This document shows, piece by piece, positions 4,023 through 28,598 of a stretch of DNA of 64,000 bases. Source of the stretch: Candidatus Nitrosomirales archaeon (GTDB taxonomy: Archaea > Thermoproteota > Nitrososphaeria > Nitrososphaerales > UBA213); assembly GCA_049199595.1 (NCBI GenBank), contig JBMCYV010000004.1:32350-96349 (forward strand), given 5' to 3'. How positions within the stretch are numbered: position 1 is the first letter of the stretch; each line of letters starts with the position of its first letter. A program made the translations under genes and the position numbers. The notes beneath the pieces are model-generated. The model was not told the DNA's origin. It ran no database searches and saw nothing but the letters and a program-made list of their open reading frames with translations.

Positions 4023-5450
4023 GTGAGCAGCGAAGATCTTGCTTCGAAGGCAATAGATCACGCGTTAAGTTTGGGTGCAAGTTATGCAGATACTAGGTTT
4101 GAGGTCAGGACAGATAAAGGCCTGCTAATAGAAAACGGAAGCATCGAGCATTTTGCTTCCCAGCAGGAGTCTGGTATAGGCATCAGGGTAATAGTTAACG
4201 GTGCGTGGGGATTCTACGCATTTGCAAATCCAAAAAACCTAGGGAATGTAAGGACGGCTGCCGAACAAGCTTTCAACCTTGCCAAGAGTTCAAGTGCTAG
4301 CATCAAGCAGAAAGTAGTTCTTGCTGATGCCAAGGCATACAAGGATACGGTTGACTATGGGTTCAAGAAGGATCCTAGGGATGGCATGAATGAATTGGTG
4401 CAGATAGCAAAGGACTGTGACAAGATAATCAGAAGCGCTGGTAAGAGGATACATAGATCGTCAGTATCCATAGGCTATGCATATACTGAAAAAATGTTCA
4501 TGAACAGCGATGGCGCAAAGATCCTGCAACGATACACTGATACGGTGACAAACATGTCGGCCACCGCACACGAATCTGGCTTGACGCAGAACGTTTCTAC
4601 TACAGAAGGTGGGAGGGGAGGCATAGAGATGGTTACGGAATATTCTGATGCAAGAGCGAAAGCACAAGAGATTGCCGAAAAAGCTGTACAGCTCATAGAT
4701 GCAAAGCCAGCAAAGGAACAGAAAGCAAGAGTTGTGATGAACCCGGACTTTGTGGCGTTGCTTGCACATGAGATTTTAGGACATCCATCAGAAGCTGATA
4801 GAGTGTTAGGATATGAGATGGCTTGGGCAGGGGGCGCTTGGTGGGCGGGCAAGCTAGGGCAGAAAGTTGGTTCTGATGCGATGAATGTGTCGGACAATCC
4901 AACGATAGAACGCAGCTTGGGTCACTACAAATATGACGATGAAGGTGTCCGTGCAAAGGATAAGGTGCTGGTAAAAAATGGAATTTTAGTAGAACATATG
5001 CATAGCCGGGAGACGGCATCAAAGTTCAGTGTTGAAGCTAACGCCGGTATGCGGGCAACAGGTTACGAATTCATGCCATTGATACGAATGGCATGCACAT
5101 ATATCAACTCCGGAAACTGGAACCATGAGGAAATGGTAAAGGAAGTTGATGATGGATTTTTTGTCTGCAACATGAAGGTACCATCAATAGATATGCTGCG
5201 CTACAACTGGAGTATATCATGCCAGTATGCATACACTGTCAAGAATGGTGAGATTAAGGATCTTTTGCGCGATATTATTGTCATGGGCGTCGCTCCAGAA
5301 TTTTTCGCTTCAATAGATGCTTGCAGTAAGGATTTTGAAATAAGACCGGTTTTGAACTGCGGGAAGGGCGATCCCATGCAGACCATGCGTATGGGCAATG
5401 GCGGTCCATATGTCAGGGGCATAGCTACAGTCAAGAGCGTAGAACAGTAG
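4023..5450 (+). CDS. tldD: TldD/PmbA-family metalloprotease
   Basis: 475 aa with HEILGHPSEADR (HExxxH) and a glycine-rich C-terminal region typical of TldD. GTG start. Confidence 0.85.
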   Translation: MSSEDLASKAIDHALSLGASYADTRFEVRTDKGLLIENGSIEHFASQQESGIGIRVIVNGAWGFYAFANPKNLGNVRTAAEQAFNLAKSSSASIKQKVVLADAKAYKDTVDYGFKKDPRDGMNELVQIAKDCDKIIRSAGKRIHRSSVSIGYAYTEKMFMNSDGAKILQRYTDTVTNMSATAHESGLTQNVSTTEGGRGGIEMVTEYSDARAKAQEIAEKAVQLIDAKPAKEQKARVVMNPDFVALLAHEILGHPSEADRVLGYEMAWAGGAWWAGKLGQKVGSDAMNVSDNPTIERSLGHYKYDDEGVRAKDKVLVKNGILVEHMHSRETASKFSVEANAGMRATGYEFMPLIRMACTYINSGNWNHEEMVKEVDDGFFVCNMKVPSIDMLRYNWSISCQYAYTVKNGEIKDLLRDIIVMGVAPEFFASIDACSKDFEIRPVLNCGKGDPMQTMRMGNGGPYVRGIATVKSVEQ

Positions 5451-5521
5451 AAAATGTCTAACTCTGGAGATACAAATGCCGCAGTATAGAATAAGAACCA
5501 CTTGCTTACCATAATGAACAG

Positions 5522-6112
5522 TTGTCAAAAAACACACTGGAGATTATTGCAGACGAAGTGAGAAAATGCACTCTTTGCAGATTATCAGAAGGCAGAACCA
5601 ATGCAGTCCCGGGAGAGGGTGACGGTTTTGCGAAGATAATGTTCATAGGTGAGGCTCCAGGCAGAAGCGAAGACCAGCAAGGAAGACCGTTTGTTGGTGC
5701 AGCTGGGAAGTTGCTAACCGAAGCTTTGCAAGAAGCTGGTCTGTCAAGAGAAGACGTATTCATCACAAACATAGTGAAGTGCAGACCTCCAAACAATCGA
5801 GTGCCAAAGGAAGAAGAGCGTAGTGCATGCAAACCATATCTGGAGAGGCAGATCGCACTAATCAATCCAAAGATAATATGTATTCTAGGCAGAACTGCAT
5901 ACGAGTCGCTGTTGGAGGGCGGTTCGATAACATCGAACAGGGGCAGGTTGGTAAAGCATGACAGCAGGTTTTATTTCCTAACAGTTCATCCAGCTGCCAT
6001 TATATACAACCCAGAACTCAAGACGATCTTCCGTAATGATCTCGTTAAATTGGTAAATGAACTGAAGAAGTTGGAAGCGAACATGGGCTCGACGATGGAG
6101 GACTATCTATAA
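5522..6112 (+). CDS. udg: uracil-DNA glycosylase, family 4
   Basis: CTLCRL Fe-S cysteines, motif A GEAPG, FITNIVKCRPP, motif B HPAAIIY. TTG start. Confidence 0.88.
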   Translation: MSKNTLEIIADEVRKCTLCRLSEGRTNAVPGEGDGFAKIMFIGEAPGRSEDQQGRPFVGAAGKLLTEALQEAGLSREDVFITNIVKCRPPNNRVPKEEERSACKPYLERQIALINPKIICILGRTAYESLLEGGSITSNRGRLVKHDSRFYFLTVHPAAIIYNPELKTIFRNDLVKLVNELKKLEANMGSTMEDYL

Positions 6113-6205
6113 CTTGCTTGAGCGATCGTTATCGTTGTACCTTTTTTGCAAAGATAGAAAAAAGGTATGTTCATACCGCCGAGCATGTTCGATTGATCGA
6201 CAAAC

Positions 6206-6451
6206 TCAGCACAGTAAGAACACAGATCCTATGTCTCGTTCTGGATGTTCCTCGAAGAATTTCTTGGATCGTTTGGTCAGCCTAATGTACTCTTTACTCT
6301 TATCTAGCTGCACGAATCCCAGCTCCGCAAGAAAAAATATTTCCGTCGCCAAAGTTGCGGTTGTTATGTTAAGTCTTTCCTTGATCTCTTTGATACGAAT
6401 TTCGCCTTCCTCGCTGATTAAGCCCAGGATTTCCTCAGTAAGTTCGCTCAT
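6206..6451 (-). CDS. small winged-helix DNA-binding protein (hypothetical)
   Basis: Start taken at an internal Met (MSELTEEILGLISEEGEIRIKEIKERLNITTATL...). wHTH-like pattern. The N-terminal 37 aa of the track ORF look non-coding. Confidence 0.45.
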   Translation of the reverse strand: MSELTEEILGLISEEGEIRIKEIKERLNITTATLATEIFFLAELGFVQLDKSKEYIRLTKRSKKFFEEHPERDIGSVFLLC

Positions 6452-6966
6452 ACCGTGCGTAAAAACCATTGGATATAAATTATACCTTGTGCAATTCAAG
6501 ACCCATATTTTGGACGAAAATTTTCCATATATTACAACTGTAATGAACCTTAAATGAAACATGGTAGATCTGGAAAATTTCTCTATAACGTATGATACAC
6601 CGTCAAAAGAACGAGGAAAATATGCTTCGGTTCTTTATTTCATACCTGTAATTTCTTGATCAAATAATAGCTCGAGACGATTATCGTACAAACGTTATTC
6701 AACAATGGATCTGGACGAATTGAGTTACATACTGCAGTCATGAACAAATATGATAAAATGGCACAAATCGTACATCTGTACGATGCATCGTATTACAACC
6801 AAAACTTGCATGATTATGCTTCTTGGACCTCAAGCAGCGGATTGAGATTCAAAAATGAATTTGTTCAAACCACTAGAGCTTTACCTTGATGCAATTCCAA
6901 CTAAGGTTATTAAACAGTAATTCAAGATACACAGGTTTTTTATCCTATAACGAAAAAATGTGATCG

Positions 6967-17232: not shown

Positions 17233-18033
17233 TTAAATTAACGTTTTGAATTCGTTTAGTATCTTTAGATGATCTTGACATAAATTACCGTTATTTATCT
17301 GCGACTCAATCAACTCCTCCTGCCAATGTGCGTTAAGTAACCTGCAGTGTTTGTTAGTGCAAAACGGATCTCCGGTAATGTAGTAAAAAAGTCCCTGCAT
17401 CACATATCCCTTTACGATCTCGGCAAGTCTTGCGTCATCGTAATCAATGAACCTACCCTCGAACTTTTTCTTTATATCATCAAGATTCGTATTTCCGATT
17501 GATGCATAGTACTGCTGCAATAAGTAGAAATCCCTAGGTTTGGCAGGCGCTTCAACTATACCGCTTGTGCAAATTATCGTTGGATAGCCGCATATTATTG
17601 CTCTGTAATGATACCTTGAATCATCTTCACTGTACGTGCATACTAACCTGTTCGTGAATGCTATGTGGATATGTTCAAGGTTATTTTCTTCGCTAGGAAT
17701 AAGCTCATTGAATATTGGTTGCAATTCGAAACCGTCATAAAGTATGCCTAGATACCGCTTTGATGGATTTGCAAGAACCTTCTTCTCAAACTCTATCTCA
17801 ATTAGCGTTGGGTCATGTGTTGCAAATGGCTTGCGAGGATCGAAGACTTTGGTCTTAACTATCTTGTCAGCGATATAATCGCCCTTGTCCTTGGGCAAAA
17901 AATGCGTAAAAAATTCATCTCTGACATCTATATCGCATTGCAACACATCTTTAACGTAAGCCGCAACCTCATCAATATTCAGCGTAGATGAAGATGGTTC
18001 TGAATAAATATGCACGTGTTTGAATTTTATCAC
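17233..18033 (-). CDS. conserved hypothetical protein with archaemetzincin-like C-terminal Cys motif
   Basis: 266 aa. C-terminal CTNKHCRL-x19-CQDH resembles the CX4CXMX17CXXC zinc site of archaemetzincins. No HExxH motif is present. Confidence 0.55.
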   Translation of the reverse strand: MIKFKHVHIYSEPSSSTLNIDEVAAYVKDVLQCDIDVRDEFFTHFLPKDKGDYIADKIVKTKVFDPRKPFATHDPTLIEIEFEKKVLANPSKRYLGILYDGFELQPIFNELIPSEENNLEHIHIAFTNRLVCTYSEDDSRYHYRAIICGYPTIICTSGIVEAPAKPRDFYLLQQYYASIGNTNLDDIKKKFEGRFIDYDDARLAEIVKGYVMQGLFYYITGDPFCTNKHCRLLNAHWQEELIESQINNGNLCQDHLKILNEFKTLI

Positions 18034-18116: not shown

Positions 18117-18308
18117 CTAAAATCCTTTCAATTCTTCATTCTGTACCAATTGATCCGTTAGCTCCTCGAAGTAGAATTTGTTCCAATGCATAGCACAGAC
18201 GAGAAAATAGGAGTCAGTCTCAGTATCGTAAACTGAGAAGAGAAAGTCTCGCTTTTCACCACAGAATTTACATACCATCTCTTTGCTCCTTCGCTCCCCG
18301 AAACCCAC
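18117..18308 (-). CDS. small hypothetical protein
   Basis: 63-aa ORF with CKFCGE plus a later C..H. No overlap with a stronger ORF. Confidence 0.4.
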   Translation of the reverse strand: MGFGERRSKEMVCKFCGEKRDFLFSVYDTETDSYFLVCAMHWNKFYFEELTDQLVQNEELKGF

Positions 18309-18481: not shown

Positions 18482-18724
18482 TTGCAGAGCGAAGAAAGCG
18501 ATGTGATCAATGAATTACTTACGTTAGGAGTTCTCACACATAAGGATGGTCAGTTAATGCTTTCTGATAACTTCTTTCTAGTATTGCTTGCAGAAGGTTT
18601 CGTAGCCAATGAAAATCCACGGGAAAAACTAATACGTACCATATATCGTTTTGTACCGACTGCGGAAAAGGAACGAGTTCTAACTTATGTGGCTATGATC
18701 GAAGGATACTTGCTGCAGAATTGA
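18482..18724 (+). CDS. hypothetical protein
   Basis: 80-aa ORF in an otherwise empty interval. TTG start, no recognisable motif. Confidence 0.35.
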   Translation: MQSEESDVINELLTLGVLTHKDGQLMLSDNFFLVLLAEGFVANENPREKLIRTIYRFVPTAEKERVLTYVAMIEGYLLQN

Positions 18725-18963: not shown

Positions 18964-19605
18964 TCATGAAGATTGGATTACATGTTTTAGCTCTGCCAGC
19001 GAATGTATGATATTCTCTCCATCATTCTTTCGCTCCCTATCTATGAGCAACGCGTTTACACCTACAGACATGGGAATCTCTACATCGTTTGCTAGATCAT
19101 CGCCTATATGCAGCATCTGTTCTGGTTCGACGGCCATTTCTTTACAGATGCCCAAATAGAACTCCTTGCTTTTCACCATATTAGCAAAATCAGATACAGC
19201 AGAGAAGGTTTCCGTTAGAAAATGTTTGGATTGGTTTAACACATCAAGTTTGTGTTCAAGTATTATTCTAGGGTTATTAGTAGATATTATAACTGTATGA
19301 TTCCTGCTGAAATCACTAAGCATGTGAAGATCGTCATAAACGCCGTCAGCATAATTTACCCTCTTCAGTACTTCCCTAATATTGGCAGTAAGACCAAACT
19401 TTTCAAACCAGTATTCCGGAATATACCATCGAGGATCGGAAGGGCCAATGCTGTCGTATGCATCAAGTATGAATTTCTGCGCATTTTCAAAACTGATCTT
19501 CTTGCTTTCTGCATAAAGTTCCGGTACGAGCTCATTCCAGAAGATATCATCGAACCCTTTCTTTATGAGCGTGCCGTCGAGATCGAATGATATTACTCTT
19601 AGCAC
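18964..19605 (-). CDS. HAD-superfamily hydrolase
   Basis: N-terminal ISFDLDGTL (DxDxT), IISTN, GDDLANDV. GTG start overlaps the stop of the upstream NTPase gene by 7 nt. Confidence 0.75.
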   Translation of the reverse strand: MLRVISFDLDGTLIKKGFDDIFWNELVPELYAESKKISFENAQKFILDAYDSIGPSDPRWYIPEYWFEKFGLTANIREVLKRVNYADGVYDDLHMLSDFSRNHTVIISTNNPRIILEHKLDVLNQSKHFLTETFSAVSDFANMVKSKEFYLGICKEMAVEPEQMLHIGDDLANDVEIPMSVGVNALLIDRERKNDGENIIHSLAELKHVIQSS

Positions 19606-21209
19606 AGGAGCACTGCTTTTGCGAGCATCAATGCCCTGTCGGAATCACTTTCCACTATATCTTCGTTTTTGTATTTCTTGTTAAAGTATATCAGGTCGAT
19701 CATCTTGCATCGATCCATGTTCACTACAGTTGTGCCGCTACCACCTTCAGTATTAGCATTTGTAAGCACAACGAACTTGTCCACATCAAGGCCATTTGTC
19801 TGTGATATCTTCTCTATGCTCTTGCCATGATCCTTGTTTATTACTACAGAAACAGCTACCTTTCCTCCATTTGAATCACTGTATACTGCATCGACATTGT
19901 TACCGTTGGGCTGTTCAGGTTTCGAAACCCTTCCTTGCTCATGTGCAAACATAACCAAACTCTTCACAGCATCCTTGACATTATCCTCCAAGGCATCACC
20001 GTCAGCACACTCTCTCCTTATCTTTATGAACTCGGAGATAGGCACGTTCATGATGCTACCTCTGACTCTCAAGCCGGGATATGCCTGCTTTATAGTCTCA
20101 TCAAGTGAATCCTCAGTAATAGTACCAGAGTTCTCCCTGCTAGCTATTTCCATAGCATGGTACATTATGTTCAGCATAGACCGTATGTTTCTGAACTCTT
20201 GGAATTCGTCGTAGATAACCCTGATCTTGCTGATTATGTCGTTTTCGTATGTTGCAAACCTTATGTCCTTGGCAGTGTGCCTTATGTATTCCAATACTAT
20301 ATCGGAAACTTCGTCAAATCTGCTGGAACCTGCAAGATCGATCTTGTAGTTAGCCTTCTCTAGTCTGTCAAACGCAGATGTATTTGCATTTCTGACATCG
20401 TCATATAATGACGGCGTCGTTACCAATAGCAGTATAGTAGATGGCAGATGTGCGTTTATTACAGCTTTTACGAAATCTATGGAATCGGGGTTGGAATCAA
20501 ATTCGTCAATTTCCAACATAGTTACCTTCCCCAGAAATCTAAAGTTCAGTCTAGCTATTGCGGTTAGAGTTGCTAGCATGACTTCTAATCCATTGATATC
20601 TGATATGTTAGCAAAATCATTATACACGGCCTTCTTTATCACTCTGCGCTCATCGATGCTGAAATCTCCAATCAACAGCTCGTTCAGAGCTCGTATATCT
20701 GGGTCCCTTTTTCCGCTAATAACTTCAGCGGCCAGATCAGCTACATTCTTCCCTCCAAATATTGAAGGTCTGAAGAACTTCTTTGCCGCCTTATCACCAT
20801 CAAATGCCCTTTGCGTTATGTATTCTAAGATTGCTGCTTTGAACTCCTTAAGGTATTGATCACTGAAGCCTGCAAGTAGGGCGGCATAAAGACTTTGTAA
20901 GTTCTTTGGAGATATAGTGCTAAGATCGGCATAAGAGCACACAGTATCTGTTTGTGTTGATTTTATGTGTAGTGAAAGGTGTGTCTTACCCGCGCCTACA
21001 TCCTGAATGACTGTTATTAGCCTGAAATCTTTTTCACTAGCATTCCTTGCGTTCGAAACCTTGCTCTTAAGTTCGCTAATGCAGTTAAGTACTGCTTTTT
21101 TGGCATCCTTGTGCCGAGTACCTCCCAGCACCTTGGCATCCATGAGCGTTGGTGTAGGACTGCTCGGAAACGGGTTCTGTGGTAAATTATATGGGTACAT
21201 TAGATACAC
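19599..21209 (-). CDS. P-loop NTPase (ORC/AAA-like N-terminus) with Mrr-like PD-(D/E)xK-type C-terminal domain; function unknown
   Basis: 536 aa. Walker A DVGAGKTH at about aa 70. Walker B MLEIDEFD. C-terminal NVDAVYSD...VAVSVVINK...KFVVLTNANT resembles the Mrr catalytic-domain pattern. 10-nt overlap with the upstream gene. Confidence 0.7.
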   Translation of the reverse strand: MYLMYPYNLPQNPFPSSPTPTLMDAKVLGGTRHKDAKKAVLNCISELKSKVSNARNASEKDFRLITVIQDVGAGKTHLSLHIKSTQTDTVCSYADLSTISPKNLQSLYAALLAGFSDQYLKEFKAAILEYITQRAFDGDKAAKKFFRPSIFGGKNVADLAAEVISGKRDPDIRALNELLIGDFSIDERRVIKKAVYNDFANISDINGLEVMLATLTAIARLNFRFLGKVTMLEIDEFDSNPDSIDFVKAVINAHLPSTILLLVTTPSLYDDVRNANTSAFDRLEKANYKIDLAGSSRFDEVSDIVLEYIRHTAKDIRFATYENDIISKIRVIYDEFQEFRNIRSMLNIMYHAMEIASRENSGTITEDSLDETIKQAYPGLRVRGSIMNVPISEFIKIRRECADGDALEDNVKDAVKSLVMFAHEQGRVSKPEQPNGNNVDAVYSDSNGGKVAVSVVINKDHGKSIEKISQTNGLDVDKFVVLTNANTEGGSGTTVVNMDRCKMIDLIYFNKKYKNEDIVESDSDRALMLAKAVLLC

Positions 21210-21955
21210 CTCACAAATCCGTGAACCATTCCTCGGACTATTACTCCCTCATTTCCTCCAGACGAGAGCTCGTAACTGTTGCTGAATTGATCGAATAGTT
21301 GTGAAGCGTTTGAGTAAAAGTTATACTTCGAGATATTGTATTTGTCGCAGATCCTCTGCCTTATCATAGCAAGTTCGACCCAACCGATCGATGTTGGTAT
21401 TTCTACTAGCGTTCTATCAAACTCCATCTTGAACTGATCAAGTGTTAAATTAGTTCCGTTATTAGCATCATTCTTTTGCGGCGTAGGAATCTTGACTTCC
21501 TTGACTATGTTGGCTACCTTGCGGTTCAATTCTGACGATACCTTTTCGTTAAAATCTACCGTCATGTTGGAGATCTTGCTGTTTAGATTACTGGTTACGT
21601 TAGAGACCTTCTTGTCTATCTCTGATGCTATGTTAGAAACCTTATTATCAATATCACCACTGATCCTTGAAATCTTGTTTGAAATCTTATTGTTGGTATT
21701 GGCGTACATATCATAAATCAGCTTGAACTTGGGATCGCTACTGACCAGTTTTTGCATGTAGTTATCCTTCGACCATAGGGTTACTATCCCGCGCTTGGTC
21801 TCCGCAAATATTTGGCCTTTGGAGAGAAGCTCCTCTATAGCTTTGCCTGATTTAGGACCAAATTCCCTTCTTAACTTGGTCTTTTTTATACCCTCCACGC
21901 CTGCAGATTCTACGCACTTGAGCAGCTTATCGTCGGACATGCCCCTAACTCGCAT
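21200..21955 (-). CDS. wHTH protein with central 11-residue repeat array; function unknown
   Basis: 251 aa. N-terminal wHTH-like segment (LLKCVESAGVEGIKKTKLRREF...), six 11-aa repeats (consensus xxxNKVSNIxx), unique C-terminal domain. Confidence 0.7.
   Translation of the reverse strand: MRVRGMSDDKLLKCVESAGVEGIKKTKLRREFGPKSGKAIEELLSKGQIFAETKRGIVTLWSKDNYMQKLVSSDPKFKLIYDMYANTNNKISNKISRISGDIDNKVSNIASEIDKKVSNVTSNLNSKISNMTVDFNEKVSSELNRKVANIVKEVKIPTPQKNDANNGTNLTLDQFKMEFDRTLVEIPTSIGWVELAMIRQRICDKYNISKYNFYSNASQLFDQFSNSYELSSGGNEGVIVRGMVHGFVRCI
21494..21694. repeat. 33-bp periodic coding repeat (about 6 units)
   Basis: The DNA shows repeated gttaga(g/a)acctt... units that encode NKISRISGDID / NKVSNIASEID / KKVSNVTSNLN / SKISNMTVDFN / EKVSSELNRKV. 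Confidence 0.7.
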
Positions 21956-22023
21956 TATAAATTATTTATGCAAAGGTGTCATATCTCGTGGACTAATCGT
22001 TAATAATTTTTGCATTATGAGAA

Positions 22024-22391
22024 TTAAATGTCGTGTGGCTGCGGCTTCACTTCGTACCTAGATTTGAAAGCCAGAGCGATCAGACCAGCTACGCTGCCAA
22101 GCACTGCGCCAACGAAATTCGTACGTACGAATATTATACTTATTATTGACAGTACGAGCACCAGCGTTCCCCAAGTGCGTGAATGTACTGGCGCATGAAA
22201 CATGGCAAAACCAAACGATACTACTATGAAACCAGTAAAACAAGACCAACGAATATGCTGTCAACATGCATAAGCAACATGTTCGTTCCTGCCTGATCAA
22301 CATTCTGCATCGAAATTATCGAGGCTGCCATAGTACTTGAACCTGCTATAATAGACATCACCATCGCTGTGAAGGGCTTCTCATGAGGCAT
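22024..22391 (-). pseudogene. frameshifted small membrane protein gene (or sequencing error)
   Basis: One frame gives MPHEKPFTAMVMSIIAGSS...HVDSIFVGLVLLVS* (stop 22224). A second frame continues hydrophobic: ...FIVVSFGFAMFHAPVHSRTWGTLVLVLSIISIIFVRTNFVGAVLGSVAGLIALAFKSRYEVKPQPHDI* (stop 22024). The switch lies near an A4 run at 22237-22240. Confidence 0.4.
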
Positions 22392-22508: not shown

Positions 22509-22748
22509 ATGGCAAAAAAGAGTAAGGAGTACATTCATACGGTAACAAGACTAGGTACAGTCACAATCCCGATCCCTATAAGAAGAAAGTATGGTATAAC
22601 GAAAGGTTCCAAGGTAATGTTTGTTGAGACTGATGATGTAATCCAGTTGGTGCCATTGACATCGATAAAAAACCTGTTTGGAGCCGATAGTGAAAAAGAG
22701 AGTGTCATTCATGGCATGATACGGGAAATCCTCAACGAGAGGAAGTAG
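22509..22748 (+). CDS. vapB: AbrB/SpoVT-type antitoxin (VapB-like)
   Basis: 79 aa. VTRLGTVTIPIPIRRKYGITKGSKVMFVE swapped-hairpin motif. Its stop abuts the vapC start. Confidence 0.85.
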   Translation: MAKKSKEYIHTVTRLGTVTIPIPIRRKYGITKGSKVMFVETDDVIQLVPLTSIKNLFGADSEKESVIHGMIREILNERK

Positions 22749-23162
22749 ATGGCAACGCCAAGAACATTTGTGCTAGATTCTTCAATACTGCTGCTTTACT
22801 TTGCTGGCGACAAAAGAGTTGAAGAACTTGTAAACAAGATCAATGATGGTATAGGAGATGGCTATATGCTTGAATTGTGCCTGTCAGAACTTTTCACGAA
22901 ATTGGAAGAAAGATTTGGTTACGCTGTAGCGAGTAAAAGACTGGAGGCTGTAAAGAATTCAAGGATCAAAGTAAGGGGTGTTGATTACGATCTGATGAAG
23001 ATTGCAGGACAGATCAAATCCACGCACAAAGGGAAGCTTTCAATGGTAGCTGCGTACATGATTGCGTTGGCAAAGAACCTTAACGCCGTTTTGGTGACAA
23101 GTGATGACAGCATTGCAAAAACAGACGAAGTTAAAGTTGAATACGTAAGACCGAAAGGTTAG
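22749..23162 (+). CDS. vapC: PIN-domain toxin (VapC-like)
   Basis: 137 aa. Acidic residues in FVLDSS, ELCLSE and VTSDD, spaced as in PIN domains. Confidence 0.88.
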   Translation: MATPRTFVLDSSILLLYFAGDKRVEELVNKINDGIGDGYMLELCLSELFTKLEERFGYAVASKRLEAVKNSRIKVRGVDYDLMKIAGQIKSTHKGKLSMVAAYMIALAKNLNAVLVTSDDSIAKTDEVKVEYVRPKG

Positions 23163-25177
23163 ATCTTCTCTTCGCCTTCGAAATTTTCGAATTCCTGCAA
23201 TCTCTCCTTTCCCCTCTTCATTACCGTGAATATCATGAGCAAGACGCCTATCCATATGGCGCTCATTATCACGTTCTGGAAGCTGACATAAACATACGGC
23301 TGCGCTTCAAGTATAGCTTCCTCCAGCCAAGTCAGCCCTTCCCTCACATCTAAAAGTCCGGTGTTGAATTCTTCGCTATCTCTAGGCAGAGTCGATAACG
23401 TTCTGAGCCTGTCCATCATTCCATCGATGTTCTTCTGCATTACGCCAAAGTCCGTCTCTGCAGTAGGAAACGCCCATACAGGATTACCTTCCTTAGGAAC
23501 CAATGGCTTTACACTAGCCATATAGTCAAGCATCTCTTCTGGCACAGAAGATGCCTTTGCAGCATTCACGTAACCTCTGGCCTTGTCCAGAGGATATACT
23601 GTTGTGCTGTAACCAATGTAGGCCATGGTAACACCGAATATTAGAAATCCAAGTATGCCAACCATCACTGCTTTGTAATGCTTTGCGACCACCCTTCGAT
23701 CCCTGCTCCTACTTTTAGGTTTGGTATTGTGCCCATTTTTAAATGTTGAATGCACTATGCTGAGGTAAGATATGTAGATGAAGCCTAACGTCTGCAGTGC
23801 CAGTATTGGAACGTAGATAGGGTTACCGCTGAATATGGATATGAATATGCCAAGTATACCATAGGCACCGAAGAACATCTCCAGCAGTGTTGTCTTAGTG
23901 AATGGCAACGCGTATGACTTGTCTCTCCAATCCTCTCCCTTCTTGGTTATGCCGAACTTTGGTGTTCGCAGAAATTCAGGTCTGCCACCATTCATCGCGT
24001 CAAATACCCCTATGGTATTGTTAACAGATATTCCAGTTGCGAACAGAATCAAGTATACATATGCTTTAGCCTTGGTCATCCATGACTGCTGCCAGAGCCG
24101 TTTTATCACGTAGATGTAAAACGCTGGTCCGAATAGTATGTAAGCAACCAAAGCTGTTATCGGATATATACTGACAGGGTAAAGCTTGAAGTCCATTGCA
24201 AGCAGCAAGGGAAGCAGCAAGAACTGCAGCAACATCAATGGGTGTACGATATGTCTTGTTAATTGTATAAAGGCCTGTATCTTGGTGTCTGCCTGCAGCT
24301 TTCTGTGCATTACAATATCGCCAGCAAGTTTTATTGCGCATTGTATCGAACCCTTTGCCCATCGATACTGCTGCCTTTTTGCAGCGTTTATCTGCACGGG
24401 TAATTCGGCATTGCAAACAACATTTTCAAGAAACATACAGCGCCAGCCCTTCATCTGTGCTCTATAACTTAGATCAAGATCTTCAACAAGCGTGTTCATG
24501 TGCCAGCCTCCAGCGTCATCGATGCACGTTCTTCGCCATATACCAGCAGTACCGTTGAAGTTCATGAAAAGATGTGTTAGGCTCTTTGCTTTCTGCTCTA
24601 TGAGAAAATGAAAGTCAAGGCTCAGTGCTTGAGCCTGTGTAAGGGCCGAATAGTTCTCGTTGAGATGACCCCACCTACACTGCACCATCCCAATCCTTTC
24701 AGACGAAAATGATGTCATGGCTTTCTTGAAGAACCAACTAGGAGGAACAAAGTCAGCGTCAAAGATCGCTACAAATTCGCCCTTTGCGCTCTTGAGACCC
24801 TCCTTTAACGCACCGGCTTTGTAGCCCCTTCTATCCTTTCTCGTTACATGCTCAATGTCATAACCCTGTGACTTGTACTGCTGAACCATGTTTCTGCAGA
24901 TCTCTCTGGTATCATCTGTAGAATCATCGAGAACTTGGATCTGCAATCTATCCTTTGGATAGTCCATCGCACATACTGACTGTATCAGTCTAGCTGCAAC
25001 ATATCTTTCGTTAAAGATGGGTAATTGTACTGTAACTGTTGGAAAGCCGTTCTCAACTGGTCTAACACGTAGCCTATTTTTCAAAGAACGATAAACAAGG
25101 TAGTAAAAGTTAAAGCTGTAGAGCGACATTACCCAAGAGATCGTTATGAAAACAACGAAGGTTATATACCCCAGCAT
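23159..25177 (-). CDS. processive family-2 glycosyltransferase (cellulose/hyaluronan-synthase-like) with extended C-terminal domain
   Basis: 672 aa. VLDDSTDDT, FDADF, TEDxD-like VEDLDLS, QQYRWAKG (QxxRW). Multiple TM helices, then about 170 aa of additional C-terminal sequence ending in a TM helix. Confidence 0.88.
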   Translation of the reverse strand: MLGYITFVVFITISWVMSLYSFNFYYLVYRSLKNRLRVRPVENGFPTVTVQLPIFNERYVAARLIQSVCAMDYPKDRLQIQVLDDSTDDTREICRNMVQQYKSQGYDIEHVTRKDRRGYKAGALKEGLKSAKGEFVAIFDADFVPPSWFFKKAMTSFSSERIGMVQCRWGHLNENYSALTQAQALSLDFHFLIEQKAKSLTHLFMNFNGTAGIWRRTCIDDAGGWHMNTLVEDLDLSYRAQMKGWRCMFLENVVCNAELPVQINAAKRQQYRWAKGSIQCAIKLAGDIVMHRKLQADTKIQAFIQLTRHIVHPLMLLQFLLLPLLLAMDFKLYPVSIYPITALVAYILFGPAFYIYVIKRLWQQSWMTKAKAYVYLILFATGISVNNTIGVFDAMNGGRPEFLRTPKFGITKKGEDWRDKSYALPFTKTTLLEMFFGAYGILGIFISIFSGNPIYVPILALQTLGFIYISYLSIVHSTFKNGHNTKPKSRSRDRRVVAKHYKAVMVGILGFLIFGVTMAYIGYSTTVYPLDKARGYVNAAKASSVPEEMLDYMASVKPLVPKEGNPVWAFPTAETDFGVMQKNIDGMMDRLRTLSTLPRDSEEFNTGLLDVREGLTWLEEAILEAQPYVYVSFQNVIMSAIWIGVLLMIFTVMKRGKERLQEFENFEGEEKI

Positions 25178-26588: not shown

Positions 26589-27410
26589 TTGGCTATGACA
26601 ATGAAGAACATAGTTCTAGTTACTCGGTACGGCAGTCTCGAGGCTGAAAATACTGCAAATAAGGTTGCACAACTGTTGCATAAGAGAGGGGCTAATGTCT
26701 ACACTGTATCTCCATTATCATTAATGAATGCGAAGATGCTGGAATCAGAAGATGAGCTAAGGCGCACACCTCTTGACCTTGCCATTGCAGTTGGCGGCGA
26801 CGGTACGATGCTTAGAGCGGTTAGATGGTTAAGTAATTCCGTACCAGTTTTTGGCATCAGACTTCCTGGCAGCAGGGGGATCTTGGCCGAGACAACGCCA
26901 GACGAACTAGAATCAGCATTAGATAGAATATTTTCGAACTCGTTCTGCTTGGAGAAACGGATGAGGATCCATGCGGCAGTTGATGGTATAGAATACCCTC
27001 CTGCACTGAACGAAATCTTCATCAACAAGATCAATGTTACGCGTACTCCAACTTACACAATAAAATTTGCGCAGGATCAGTTGACGCAAAGAATGGATGG
27101 TGTTATGATAGCAACGCCAACTGGATCTACTGGTTATTCATTTTCCTCCGGCGGTCCCGTATTGCACGAAAATCTGAATGTATTGGTTATAACGCCGTTG
27201 AGTCCTTTGAACAGAATGCCTCCCTTGGTTGTTCCTGTTGAGGCGATCGAAGTTAGGAGCAACTCAGATTCTAGCATTGTTGTTGATGGGCAATCAACTT
27301 TTGAAATAAGAAATGAGCAAGATATTAAAATAGCACGGTACAAGCATGATGCGGTATTCTTGCGCTTTGAAACTAAGGGCCTGAGGCAACTTGCAAAGCT
27401 CGGATTCTAG
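26589..27410 (+). CDS. nadK: NAD kinase
   Basis: GGDGT motif (VGGDGTMLRA), NE..I motif, TPTGSTGY. Confidence 0.9.
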   Translation: MAMTMKNIVLVTRYGSLEAENTANKVAQLLHKRGANVYTVSPLSLMNAKMLESEDELRRTPLDLAIAVGGDGTMLRAVRWLSNSVPVFGIRLPGSRGILAETTPDELESALDRIFSNSFCLEKRMRIHAAVDGIEYPPALNEIFINKINVTRTPTYTIKFAQDQLTQRMDGVMIATPTGSTGYSFSSGGPVLHENLNVLVITPLSPLNRMPPLVVPVEAIEVRSNSDSSIVVDGQSTFEIRNEQDIKIARYKHDAVFLRFETKGLRQLAKLGF

Positions 27411-27909
27411 CATCTTAGTTTTGGATGCGAGTGCGTTCTACGCTGGAATACCGTTTCTGGGTTCTAAATGTTATACAACTAATGATGTGTTTGATGAAGT
27501 GAAACATATCAAGAACTCTCATGAGGCGTTGGAAGCTTTGATCGATGCAGGTAATCTACAGATACTGGAACCTGAATCGAGTTATGTAAAAGATGCTAAC
27601 GAACTTGCAAGAAGAAGTGGTGATATTGGGAAGATGTCAAAGGCTGATCTTTCTGTGCTTGCGCTAGCTCTTCACTTTAAGAGATCCAAAAATGATCCAT
27701 CAGTGGTTACAGATGACTATGCTATTGCCAACACTCTTGAGATGGCTGGAATAAAGGTCTCATATGTGATGACGAAAGGTATACGGAAAGTGGGAAGATG
27801 GATAAAATACTGCAGTGCGTGTGGAAAATCATACGGTAGTGAAGAAAAAGTATGTGAAGTATGCGGGAATAAGCTGAGAATGAAACTTAAAGGATCAATA
27901 AAATGCTAA
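27391..27909 (+). CDS. nob1: Nob1-like endonuclease (PIN domain + zinc ribbon)
   Basis: N-terminal PIN (LVLDASAF ... TDDYAIAN) and C-terminal CSACGK...CEVCGN ribbon, which is the archaeal Nob1 architecture. Confidence 0.8.
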   Translation: MQSSDSSILVLDASAFYAGIPFLGSKCYTTNDVFDEVKHIKNSHEALEALIDAGNLQILEPESSYVKDANELARRSGDIGKMSKADLSVLALALHFKRSKNDPSVVTDDYAIANTLEMAGIKVSYVMTKGIRKVGRWIKYCSACGKSYGSEEKVCEVCGNKLRMKLKGSIKC

Positions 27910-28598
27910 GTCTCATAACCGTCTAGGGCTGTCTGTTCATTCTTGCTATCAACCTGAACTTGATCGAGAACCTTTCTCAACTTCGTTGCCCTTGCGAGAC
28001 CCATCCCCTCTACCCTTGAAAGCTCTGCCGTTGATGCATTCAGCACTTTCAAAGGAGTTTTGAACTTTGTCAGCAGTCTAACTGCAAGTTTGTCTCCCAC
28101 CCCTGGTAAAGAAGCGAGTATGGACAGCTGCTGCATCTTCAGCGGGTTGCTCTTCTTCACCTTTCGCAATAATGGGCCTGACTTTTCCTTCAATGCTCGA
28201 TTTGCCATCGCAATCAATGCCTTTGCAGTGTGCGATGCTGATGGTGTGTGTATAATCGCGATTCGAAAGTCGAGTGCTACAGATGCCAGTGCACCATAGA
28301 TCACCATTGGGTTGTCAATTACTCTTTCAAACATTTCATTGCTACCCTCAACTATCAAAACTGGCTTTGCGTAATGAGTAACAAGTTCAGAACATTGTGT
28401 AAACAACCTTCCATCGTAAATTGATTGTACAAGATCACGGATAGACTTGCGTTCAACAGCACTGTCTGATGCTACTATGTAATCCCCAACTTGCAGCTGC
28501 GCAAAATCCACTACGGCTTTCAAATTAACCAGTTCGTCAGGTATTCCGCTCTGTCTTTCACGCTCATCAGCAACTATTCTGACCGTCTCTCTGGTCAT
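27906..28598 (-). CDS. xpf: XPF/ERCC4-family structure-specific nuclease (short archaeal form)
   Basis: VADERE, GDY, ERKSIRDL ERCC4 motifs plus a C-terminal tandem HhH (LPGVGDKLA..., VEGMGLARA). Confidence 0.88.
   Translation of the reverse strand: MTRETVRIVADERERQSGIPDELVNLKAVVDFAQLQVGDYIVASDSAVERKSIRDLVQSIYDGRLFTQCSELVTHYAKPVLIVEGSNEMFERVIDNPMVIYGALASVALDFRIAIIHTPSASHTAKALIAMANRALKEKSGPLLRKVKKSNPLKMQQLSILASLPGVGDKLAVRLLTKFKTPLKVLNASTAELSRVEGMGLARATKLRKVLDQVQVDSKNEQTALDGYET

Follow-up and report, generated by a model that had tools for sequence, protein, structure and literature searches.

A core gene pair of the Nitrososphaeria: an AAA+ ATPase with a degenerate nuclease-derived domain and its coiled-coil partner

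Is an archaeal gene pair that joins a winged-helix, repeat-bearing protein to a P-loop NTPase with a nuclease-like tail a defence system, or does it serve the cell in some other way? This question is raised by a locus in the window analysed here (the window is the whole stretch of DNA, 64 kb in length). An earlier note proposed that the two genes form a coupled module, and that this module acts in defence against mobile elements or in DNA sensing. Our results support the module, the NTPase being an AAA+ ATPase whose partner we call REP, and point away from active defence.

The gene pair and its neighbourhood

REP and the ATPase are present in one copy each in the window, and their features are collected in Table 1. 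The longest open reading frames of REP and the ATPase overlap by 10 nt, and those of the ATPase and the HAD gene by 7 nt (the junction reads GTGCTAA), just as had been noted. Because the homologues begin at REP M6 and ATPase M4, the true junction within the pair is probably TAATG, with a 1-nt overlap of stop and start. An AT-rich box upstream of REP is a candidate promoter, read from the sequence.

Table 1. Features of the gene pair and the adjoining genes (window coordinates)
Feature	Position	Strand	Details
HAD-IA phosphatase gene	18964..19605	-	Pfam Hydrolase, E = 2.9e-12
AAA+ ATPase gene	19599..21209	-	Longest ORF, 536 aa
Probable ATPase start	M4 at 21200	-	Gives 533 aa; from homologue starts
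C-terminal alpha/beta domain	19602..19919	-	Residues 431-536; PD-(D/E)xK-derived, catalytically degenerate
Degenerate nuclease motif, D440 and S454-V455-V456	19842..19892	-	From alignments and hhalign
AFDRLEK with R282	20355..20375	-	Residues 279-285; R282 invariant in all branches
Walker B MLEIDEFD	20496..20519	-	Residues 231-238
Helical insertion of ~125 aa, strand 2 to Walker B	20532..20900	-	Residues 104-226 (AF2)
Walker A QDVGAGKTH	20979..21005	-	Residues 69-77
N-terminal peptide YPYxLxxNP(F/Y)PSSPTPT...LGGxRH	21111..21200	-	Nearly invariant columns; also in distant relatives
Partner gene REP	21200..21955	-	Longest ORF, 251 aa; from the ORF list
Probable REP start	M6 at 21940	-	Gives 246 aa; second Met is the start in most of the 279 homologues
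REP C-terminal domain	21203..21451	-	Residues 169-251; three helices; most conserved part of REP
REP long single helix	21497..21733	-	Residues 75-153 (AF2); holds 5-6 hendecad repeats
REP winged-helix domain	21740..21940	-	Residues 6-72; AF2 pLDDT 89-94
TATA-like AT-rich box ATAAATAATTTATA	21956..21969	-	16-29 nt upstream of the probable REP start at 21940
vapB (MazE/AbrB-type) and vapC (PIN)	22509..23162	+	Pfam; flanked by GT2 and the pair, both on the other strand
GT2 glycosyltransferase gene, multi-pass	23159..25177	-	Pfam Glyco_tranf_2_3, E = 3e-25

More than 1,300 homologues of the ATPase have a length of ~540 aa, and those with a source name come from Nitrososphaerales, Nitrososphaera or Nitrosocaldus. 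Relatives were found in 376 species-level genomes, where the best 80 loci are all from Nitrososphaeria, and a profile search of 1.84 billion proteins yielded only 92 representatives of the family. No family member matched viral contigs, and a distant member had no match in plasmid or phage records. In every locus with room for it (71/71), REP is the gene immediately upstream of the ATPase and shares its strand. A GT2 gene is found upstream on the same strand in 27 of the 33 loci with room, across three orders, and also in L001, L003 and L004; the HAD gene adjoins the ATPase in only 12 of 72. Judged from this conservation, the pair is shown to be a core operon, passed on by vertical inheritance, of the Nitrososphaeria, which are archaea of the ammonia-oxidiser type.

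Housekeeping genes flank the locus, and the gene order (GT2 synthase, then vapBC, the pair and HAD) is common to the window and the Nitrosocaldaceae. In the latter, the HAD protein has a same-position counterpart (39% identical) and VapC a positional orthologue (48% identical). The vapBC pair also occurs in three other loci (L007, L009 and L013), and vapB alone in L011. By this orthology vapBC has long been part of the locus. The earlier note had placed a vapBC pair about 0.5 kb from the two genes and saw in this a defence-like layout. The MazE/PIN pair is there, 0.55 kb away, but vapC and the HAD gene both being positional orthologues of Nitrosocaldaceae genes speaks against that reading, and the constant, conserved core context speaks against a variable island. 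At the place of the putative 'decayed membrane gene' (22024-22391) there are two short TM-like ORFs, and 94 related loci contain no homologue of them. The scan of the larger ORFs, out to ~6 kb in both directions, gave no methyltransferase, in agreement with the note. There is an XPF/ERCC4 nuclease gene 6.7 kb away.

An ATPase with a degenerate nuclease-derived domain

The AF2 model of the ATPase (mean pLDDT 78.9) shows an AAA+ fold, AAA_22/ORC-Cdc6 in type, and Foldseek matches it to RuvBL, ORC4, Orc1/Cdc6, RdrA, HslU and BrxC. The protein has no significant match in Pfam or NCBIfam. Against AAA_22 (PF13401) it scores 13.1 bits (E = 0.12), whereas distant members reach 28-35 bits, with a gathering threshold of 27. 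One of these, P0259 (34.6 bits), scores 245 bits in the profile search, showing that the distant branch is homologous to the family of the window ATPase.

Both Walker motifs recognised in the earlier note are real. In Walker A, residues G72, G74, K75, T76 and H77 do not vary among 25 diverse homologues, nor do G74, K75 and T76 across the whole family, distant branches included; Walker B D235 and E236 are likewise invariant in the whole family. The ATPase keeps its ATP-binding and hydrolysis residues intact. R282 is a candidate arginine finger, given its place before strand 5 in the AF2 model and what is generally known of AAA+ proteins. The N-terminal peptide is predicted to be disordered (pLDDT < 50), and two short relatives (P0279 and P0294) lack the helical insertion.

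The C-terminal domain was earlier thought to be of Mrr type. Its predicted elements run in the order helix (404-424), a single bridge residue (432), strands (441-444 and 450-456), helix (461-473) and strand (478-483), with a further C-terminal strand at 493-497. This order fits the alpha-beta-beta-beta-alpha-beta arrangement of PD-(D/E)xK domains if the bridge residue stands for the first strand. The catalytic motif D...(D/E)xK occurs in distant relatives from Thermofilaceae and other Thermoproteota, in three separate branches: as DVK in Thermofilaceae, EVK in P0321 and P0327, and DIK in P0279 and P0294. A clade that lacks the partner gene carries NVK. An hhalign comparison with the domain of the distant branch (probability 99.1%) aligns the (D/E)xK of the relatives to S454-V455-V456, so the motif previously read at I457-N458-K459 (INK) was three residues out of register. 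Since this is the register, the window ATPase has neither the catalytic acid nor the lysine. The same holds for all Nitrososphaeria, which have (S/A/V)-V-(V/T) at this place and retain only Asp440, a residue that is invariant in the whole family.

Weak matches agree with this ancestry. The isolated domains of two relatives give sub-threshold Pfam matches to Mrr_cat (E = 0.028) and an AHJR-like REase (E = 0.0043), and the relatives' domain also has a sub-threshold match to Cas4 (4ic1); these matches cover the catalytic stretch. The window's own domain has no Pfam nuclease match, even a weak one. In a neighbour-joining tree, calculated without support values, the Nitrososphaeria clade is nested among branches that bear the motif. 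The alignments show descent from a PD-(D/E)xK nuclease, with loss of the catalytic acid and lysine in all Nitrososphaeria and gain of new invariant residues (D460-H461, N484, D499 and D505): the PD-(D/E)xK ancestry stands, with canonical motifs in the relatives, but the window domain is missing the catalytic E and K.

The partner protein

REP begins with a winged helix, as had been suggested. The AF2 model gives helices at residues 8-17, 25-32 and 36-46 and strands at 49-54 and 57-62, with a pLDDT above 90 over residues 8-62. Foldseek matches this segment to ScpB, MarR, F-93, Sso10a and TubR, although the best has E = 3.9e-3 and none reaches E <= 0.001. DNA binding by this domain is at most putative: helix 3 is acidic to neutral (net charge -0.9 on average) and unconserved among homologues, and the domain is without a basic, conserved recognition helix.

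The 11-residue repeats are also real. Residues ~87-155 show a periodicity with z = 7.2 at offset 11 and harmonics at 22 and 33, and we count five to six repeats where six had been given. Their hydrophobic seam is narrow and takes up ~3 positions in 11, which is like a coiled coil and unlike a lipid-binding helix. The length of this stalk differs between lineages, the stalk being nearly absent at one extreme and about 400 residues long at the other; homologues range from 163 to 292 aa, with a Nitrosocaldaceae version of 558 aa. In the C-terminal domain, AF2 places helices at 172-223 followed by a tail of low confidence (pLDDT < 50), and the tail sequence YELSSGGxEGVxVRGxxHGFVRCI is invariant in the homologue alignment. 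This domain is also kept in the Thermofilaceae, where the gene upstream of the ATPase encodes a full-length REP homologue (109 bits). REP has no significant match in Pfam, NCBIfam or PADLOC.

Possible functions and comparison with known systems

Could the pair, in this genome, be an active system for anti-mobile-element defence or DNA sensing, in which the winged-helix partner senses DNA, the NTPase transduces the signal and the Mrr-like tail cuts? The combination of an NTPase, a PD-(D/E)xK-derived domain and a coiled-coil partner favours this, as do the adjoining vapBC, the intact motifs and weak mad8, BrxD and BrxC_BrxD profile matches of distant relatives, and the Thermofilaceae locus, which has PIN, HicB and methyltransferase-like genes around it. 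We nevertheless consider it very unlikely. The catalytic E and K are missing throughout the Nitrososphaeria, and the pair is near-universal and single-copy, at a fixed position among housekeeping neighbours, and vapBC itself is a positional orthologue common to the Nitrosocaldaceae. The absence of the family from viral contigs, and of a distant member from plasmid and phage records, argues in the same direction. Neither window protein has a meaningful match in PADLOC-DB v2: the ATPase matches 0 families and REP gives coiled-coil noise only, against the ZorA and Leo profiles.

A housekeeping nuclease that still cuts by means of a migrated active site, working in ATP-dependent DNA repair or processing, is an unlikely alternative despite some suggestive residues. 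Active-site migration is known among PD-(D/E)xK enzymes, and D460-H461 (23/25), beside the retained D440, could be such a site. D460-H461 are conserved in Nitrososphaeria only, as are N484, D499 and D505 (fully or almost fully invariant), and the XPF/ERCC4 gene 6.7 kb away also counts in favour. Against this, hydrophobic or small residues stand where the canonical lysine and second acid would be, D460-H461 cap the following helix in the AF2 model rather than lying on the catalytic strand, and the window domain gave no Pfam nuclease match. It seems equally doubtful that the pair is an envelope or glycan accessory, in which the ATPase and REP would serve the membrane GT2 synthase as regulator or scaffold, and a sugar- or nucleotide-phosphate precursor would be the substrate of the HAD protein. 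The kept GT2 linkage could point this way, as could the HAD gene in some lineages (it is translationally coupled in the window lineage and Nitrosocaldales). The hendecads are weakly like apolipoprotein- and phasin-type helices, and the N-terminal peptide of the ATPase may recall ExeA-type AAA_22 ATPases. However, the opposite-strand vapBC lies between GT2 and the pair, both here and in Nitrosocaldaceae, so the two are not co-transcribed; no GT2 gene was seen in the 7.8-kb Thermofilaceae contig or the loci of the partner-less clade; and HAD adjacency is infrequent. The coiled-coil-like seam and the lack of any TM helix in the AF2 models of REP and the ATPase also count against it, and the nuclease ancestry points to nucleic acids.

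Our leading explanation, held tentatively and at slightly less than an even chance, is that the pair is an ATP-driven, nucleic-acid-binding switch that does not cleave, an ATPase-nuclease module recruited to a core cellular role. REP would dimerise through its coiled-coil stalk and dock on the ATPase with its invariant C-terminal domain. The ATPase would assemble in an ATP-dependent manner, with R282 as arginine finger, and the dead nuclease domain would bind nucleic acid without cutting it. The complex may then serve as an ATP-gated switch for binding, tethering or remodelling. Nucleic-acid binding, the REP-ATPase interaction and oligomerisation are all putative, and the housekeeping role is probably related to DNA or the chromosome. 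A bolder version, which we regard as rather unlikely, is that this is a Nitrososphaeria-defining machine without known counterpart, a domesticated, non-cutting complex that tethers DNA or organises the chromosome. Here the dead nuclease domain would grip DNA, and the length of the hendecad stalk would set how far apart in space two bound sites or partners lie.

The history that goes with the non-cleaving switch may have begun with an ATPase-nuclease pair, of which the Thermofilaceae form keeps the intact motif beside toxin-antitoxin and methyltransferase genes, followed by recruitment to a housekeeping role in the ancestor of the Nitrososphaeria. The case for a defence-like ancestor rests mainly on this one Thermofilaceae locus, because the partner-less NVK clade sits in a conserved, non-defence context of its own.

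How does the pair compare with known systems? McrBC and CoCoNuT-type systems consist of an AAA+ NTPase, a PD-(D/E)xK nuclease and extensive coiled coils (PMC11090510). The likeness to the window pair is one of general logic, an analogy with no sequence relationship detected: our ATPase is AAA_22/ORC-like rather than an McrB GTPase, its nuclease domain is fused and degenerate, and its locus is a core locus, not a restriction system.

REP is weakly similar, in the winged helix only, to ScpB (6juv, E = 3.9e-3), MarR-like proteins, F-93 and Sso10a-2. Sso10a also has a long helix after the winged helix; REP differs in its variable hendecad stalk, its unique invariant C-terminal domain and a helix 3 that is neither basic nor conserved. 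The C-terminal domain of the ATPase is predicted to have the order of elements of Mrr_cat, AHJR-like and Cas4 nucleases, if its single bridge residue counts as the first strand, and it has an Asp at the start of strand 2, and the relatives' (D/E)xK falls on strand 3. Unlike these nucleases, the window domain lacks the catalytic acid, the lysine and a profile match, and is fused to the C-terminus of an AAA+ ATPase.

The loose resemblance to BrxD that had been remarked upon holds for distant relatives, which weakly match BrxC_BrxD (PF10923, E = 1.3e-3), PADLOC BrxD (1.4e-4) and MADS mad8 (1e-5 to 5e-5), but the window ATPase has no such profile match; its model does match BrxC (9zll_B) in Foldseek, with E = 8e-4. 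The AAA_22 ATPases include BrxD and BrxC of BREX and mad8 of MADS. To our knowledge, a fused nuclease-derived domain and a partner protein are not among the features of BrxD. The neighbours scanned (~6 kb) include no PglX, PglZ or other BREX or MADS genes, and the context in the window is core and syntenic.

Another close parallel is with Orc1/Cdc6 and ORC proteins, the AAA+ initiator clade, and one ATPase homologue carries the JGI name 'Cdc6-like AAA superfamily ATPase'. Foldseek matches the model to ORC4 (7jk6_D, E = 8e-5) and Sulfolobus solfataricus Cdc6/Orc1 (2qby_B, E = 2.6e-4), with TM-scores of only ~0.3. No Orc/Cdc6 profile matched the ATPase at E <= 1 in Pfam or NCBIfam, nor was there one in a PDB sequence search. 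The shared features are an AAA+ fold that includes a lid domain, a P-loop preceded by an N-terminal strand and helix, both Walker motifs and the conserved Arg before strand 5. Where Orc1/Cdc6 carries a C-terminal winged helix (Cdc6_C, for which Pfam gave no match here), the window ATPase has its PD-(D/E)xK-derived alpha/beta domain, and it is further set apart by the helical insertion before Walker B and an obligate coiled-coil partner gene.

Gene order and distribution of the pair

The AAA+ ATPase gene and the gene for its winged-helix/hendecad partner are followed by a HAD phosphatase gene, all three consecutive on the minus strand, and the overlaps of 10 and 7 nt described in the earlier note were confirmed for the longest ORFs. 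Comparison with homologues places the probable starts at M6 of the partner (its second Met) and M4 of the ATPase. The partner/ATPase junction reads ...TGT ATC TAA TG TAC CCA..., where stop and start share 1 nt (TAATG), and the ATPase/HAD junction is GTGCTAA, with a 7-nt overlap. An AT-rich box ahead of the partner gene may serve as the promoter. There is one copy of each gene in the window, and ARAGORN found no tRNA there as a possible marker of an integration site.

Features of the window and of the related loci discussed in the text
Feature	Locus	Coordinates	Strand	Remarks
Partner ORF	window	21200-21955	-	251 aa, longest ORF
ATPase ORF	window	19599-21209	-	536 aa, longest ORF
HAD ORF	window	18964-19605	-	213 aa
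Putative promoter, AT-rich TATA-like box	window	21956-21969		16-29 nt upstream of probable partner start
Two short TM-like ORFs	window	22024-22391	-	55 and 59 aa, different frames
vapBC (MazE/PIN)	window	22509-23162	+	between GT2 gene and pair
PIN_6 ribonuclease-type gene	window	27391-27909	+	6-7 kb from pair
XPF/ERCC4-HhH nuclease gene	window	27906-28598	-	6-7 kb from pair
DUF6775/DUF7001 probable metallopeptidase	window	17233-18033	-	E = 3e-97; about 1 kb downstream of HAD gene
Two small ORFs, no family match	window	18117-18308, 18482-18724		between HAD and DUF6775/DUF7001 genes
vapBC	L003 (Nitrosocaldaceae)	5492-6215		same site and orientation as in window
Partner	L003	6323-7999		558 aa
BrxL-like gene	L003	1328-2698	-	PF20442 BrxL_N, PF13337 BrxL_ATPase
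Split partner	L006	6811-8001		two ORFs, 231 and 163 aa
DPPY methyltransferase-like gene	L087 (Thermofilaceae)	4725-6545	-	606 aa; 1.7 kb from ATPase

More than 1,300 homologues of the ATPase were found, almost all of about 540 aa, and those carrying a source name come from Nitrososphaerales, Nitrososphaera or Nitrosocaldus (53-84% identity). The pair is strongly conserved, with 53% identity between orders. A relative is encoded in 376 species-representative genomes, and the best 80 of these 376 are all Nitrososphaeria. Among 1.84 billion representative proteins, an exhaustive search with a profile returned only 92 matches; the few source-named distant full-length members belong to Thermofilaceae, other Thermoproteota and Korarchaeota. 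The pair is confined to Korarchaeota and a few lineages of Thermoproteota. No relatives were found in a scan of viral contigs for the family, tblastn of the Thermofilaceae ATPase gave no match among plasmid and phage records, and a literature search by accession and keyword found no paper naming the family.

The two genes form a core operon. In 71/71 Nitrososphaeria loci that leave 600 bp or more for it, the partner lies immediately upstream of the ATPase on the same strand. Further upstream on the same strand is a GT2 synthase gene (27/33 loci), and a HAD gene directly follows the ATPase in 12/72. The order is GT2 - partner - ATPase in N. gargensis and GT2 - one gene - partner - ATPase in Nitrosopumilaceae; the Nitrosocaldaceae order, GT2 - vapC/vapB - partner - ATPase - HAD, is identical to that of the window, and the proteins of the two loci share 48% identity for VapC and 39% for HAD. 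The flanks in the window encode a rhodanese, NAD kinase, PIN_6 ribonuclease-type protein, XPF/ERCC4 protein, thioredoxin reductase, PLP enzyme, CofE and DUF6775 peptidase. The pair is a vertically inherited core locus. The earlier note had put it forward as a candidate defence or DNA-sensing module and had named an always conserved core context as a finding that would speak against this; a core context is what we found, with fixed synteny and a single copy in the window.

The vapBC genes, also seen at loci L007, L009 and L013 (L011 shows vapB only), were rejected as evidence of a mobile island because they are positional orthologues of the Nitrosocaldaceae pair, and it is unusual for a toxin-antitoxin pair to hold its position in lineages so deeply separated. 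Between the pair and vapB, the TM-like ORFs take up some 0.4 kb of additional spacer; a search of 94 related loci found no homologue, so the proposed decayed membrane gene is not supported. The PIN_6 and XPF/ERCC4-HhH genes are convergent, with a 4-nt overlap. Two genes upstream of GT2, Nitrosocaldaceae locus L003 carries a BrxL-like gene, of which no counterpart was seen in the examined part of the window.

Domain architecture of the two proteins

Scans of both window proteins against Pfam, NCBIfam and PADLOC gave no significant match, and neither did searches of PDB sequences with single sequences and with profiles. The AlphaFold2 model of the ATPase (mean pLDDT 78.9) predicts a AAA+ core, a helical lid and a C-terminal alpha/beta domain, in that order; a helical insertion, roughly 125 residues long, separates strand 2 from Walker B. 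The Walker A (G72, G74, K75, T76, H77) and Walker B (D235, E236) residues picked out previously proved invariant in 25 diverse homologues, and the ATPase looks competent. R282, just before strand 5, is invariant family-wide and occupies what we take to be the site of AAA+ arginine fingers, making it a candidate for this role. The segment FDRLEKANYKIDL...DIVLEYIR may resemble the Cdc6/ORC box VII and sensor-2 region, and the N-terminal peptide YPYxLxxNPF...P.P...LGG.RH may be akin to ExeA-type AAA_22 N-termini.

The nearest solved structures found by Foldseek are RuvBL1/2, ORC4, archaeal Orc1/Cdc6, RdrA, HslU and BrxC (E-values 3e-5 to 1e-3, TM-scores around 0.3); a search against viral structures gave generic AAA+ matches only. 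A housekeeping Orc1/Cdc6 identity was rejected, as the protein has neither the winged-helix C-terminus nor a profile match: Orc1/Cdc6 ends in a winged helix, whereas the window ATPase ends in an alpha/beta domain.

This C-terminal domain has a nuclease-like ancestry. When aligned, distant members show a canonical PD-(D/E)xK signature, with an invariant Asp (window D440) and (D/E)xK one strand later. The latter is DVK in Thermofilaceae, EVK in proteins P0321 and P0327 and DIK in P0279 and P0294; at this site a partner-less clade has NVK or SVK, P0274 has FCR and a Korarchaeota-type member has NVM. In every Nitrososphaeria sequence the motif is degenerate, with (S/A/V)-V-(V/T) at this site (S454-V455-V456 in the window). 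Profile-profile comparison of the Nitrososphaeria and distant domains leaves the register unchanged (probability 99.1%, E = 1e-18). The earlier note had assigned D...(E/Q)xK to 'VVINK'; since the motif aligns to S454-V455-V456, that register is off by three residues, and its acid position is Ile457 in 22/25 sequences.

The predicted elements, a(404-424), a single bridge residue 432, b(441-444), b(450-456), a(461-473) and b(478-483), would fit a PD-(D/E)xK core, and the model places D440 at the start of strand 2 and 454-456 on strand 3. Isolated C-terminal domains of two distant members gave sub-threshold matches to Mrr_cat (E = 0.028) and an AHJR-like REase (E = 0.0043); no such match came from the domain of the window protein. 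The distant-domain profile aligned D...(D/E)xK to the catalytic motif of Cas4 SSO0001 (4ic1), though only at E = 0.72. Nitrososphaeria are nested among motif-bearing branches in a midpoint-rooted neighbour-joining tree, and the parsimonious reading is that an ancestral motif disappeared on the stem of the Nitrososphaeria. The loss brought no decay of the domain, which is still highly conserved; lineage-specific conserved residues have been gained, namely D460-H461 (23/25), N484, D499 and D505.

For the obligate partner, AlphaFold2 (mean pLDDT 78) predicts an N-terminal winged helix (residues 8-62, pLDDT above 90), one unbroken helix (75-153) and a C-terminal domain of three helices (172-223), followed by an invariant tail, YELSSGGxEGVxVRGxxHGFVRCI, modelled with low confidence. 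Foldseek matched the winged helix alone (ScpB, MarR, F-93, Sso10a, TubR; best E = 3.9e-3). The model and the search uphold the fold proposed for this segment. Its third helix is acidic to neutral and unconserved, so DNA reading by the winged helix is not established. The 11-residue repeats are real, with a strong periodicity over ~87-155 (z = 7.2 at offset 11, harmonics at 22 and 33); they are detectable at the protein level only, Tandem Repeats Finder having found no array in the DNA.

The stalk formed by this region varies in length, and the coiled coil changes fast between lineages. The Nitrosocaldaceae partner has an internal duplication of about 75 residues, the partner of N. gargensis has no 11-mer repeats, and at locus L006 the gene is split within an array of 33-residue units, the intact form of this type being P0163 (292 aa).

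Relatives outside Nitrososphaeria

On a Thermofilaceae contig the DVK-motif ATPase follows, after a 2-nt gap, a 204-aa gene; its product is homologous to the partner over the full length and scores 109 bits with the partner profile. Around the two lie PIN and RHH/HicB-like genes and a DPPY methyltransferase-like gene. The product of the last matches PADLOC MTase_II (2.9e-7) and mad2 (5e-5) and, weakly, DUF1156; the ATPase has weak mad8 and BrxD matches. This may be a methylation-associated defence-like locus. A conserved PIN association reaching to Thermofilaceae was rejected, the PIN proteins being unrelated (E = 0.05).

Distant ATPases score above the Pfam AAA_22 cutoff and weakly match AAA_16, ATPase_2, BrxC_BrxD, BrxD and mad8. 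The earlier description of the ATPase as loosely BrxD-like therefore has some basis in its distant relatives, although the window protein itself has no PADLOC match.

A DNA pattern made by hand for the N-terminal motif of the family picked up 13 loci in metagenome contigs, all 13 encoding family members. In the NVK clade (L088, L090, L092-L096, L100) the ATPase is about 560 aa and the partner gene is absent. Divergently upstream lies a conserved gene for a multi-TM protein (about 140 aa), a LysE-like exporter follows the ATPase in loci with enough downstream sequence, and MttB-like genes are nearby. This clade thus has a conserved context of its own, so that a defence-like ancestor of the module is suggested by one lineage only.

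Possible role of the pair

We propose the following mechanism. The hendecad coiled coil would dimerise the partner, whose invariant C-terminal domain may dock on the ATPase; the ATPase would assemble or cycle with ATP, and the dead nuclease domain would bind nucleic acid with no cutting. In a housekeeping process, the complex could thus serve as a switch for binding, tethering or remodelling that is gated by ATP. Taken as a whole, this ATP-gated, non-cutting switch is our preferred but tentative reading, with slightly less than an even chance of being right.

Other explanations must be weighed against it. That the pair is an active defence system we consider very unlikely, given the core context of the locus and the loss of the catalytic residues. 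It could instead act in envelope or glycan synthesis as an accessory of the neighbouring GT2 synthase and HAD phosphatase, and the conserved linkage with these genes supports this; however, the opposite-strand vapBC separates the genes, GT2 is absent from the non-Nitrososphaeria loci examined, and the ATPase tail has nuclease ancestry, which together make this unlikely. A still-active nuclease, its active site having migrated to use D440, D460 and H461, is likewise improbable.

Much of global nitrification is the work of ammonia-oxidising archaea, which belong to the Nitrososphaeria, a class in which many conserved core genes lack an assigned function. The pair appears to be among these. It offers three handles: an apparently competent ATPase, a catalytic loss with intact-motif relatives for comparison, and an obligate partner. 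No surprising mechanism is demonstrated here; the pair occurs across an archaeal class that dominates ecologically, and the way to study it by experiment is clear. It is a plausible case of a nuclease-ATPase module that moved from an accessory to a core role, and a caution that an NTPase, a nuclease-like domain and a nearby toxin-antitoxin pair should not be taken as defence.

Modules that combine an NTPase with a PD-(D/E)xK domain are already known, and the present one is an unnamed family of such modules. In Nitrososphaeria the gene is a fixed part of the core, its product has a pseudo-nuclease domain, and the partner joins a winged helix, a hendecad coiled coil and a conserved C-terminal domain.
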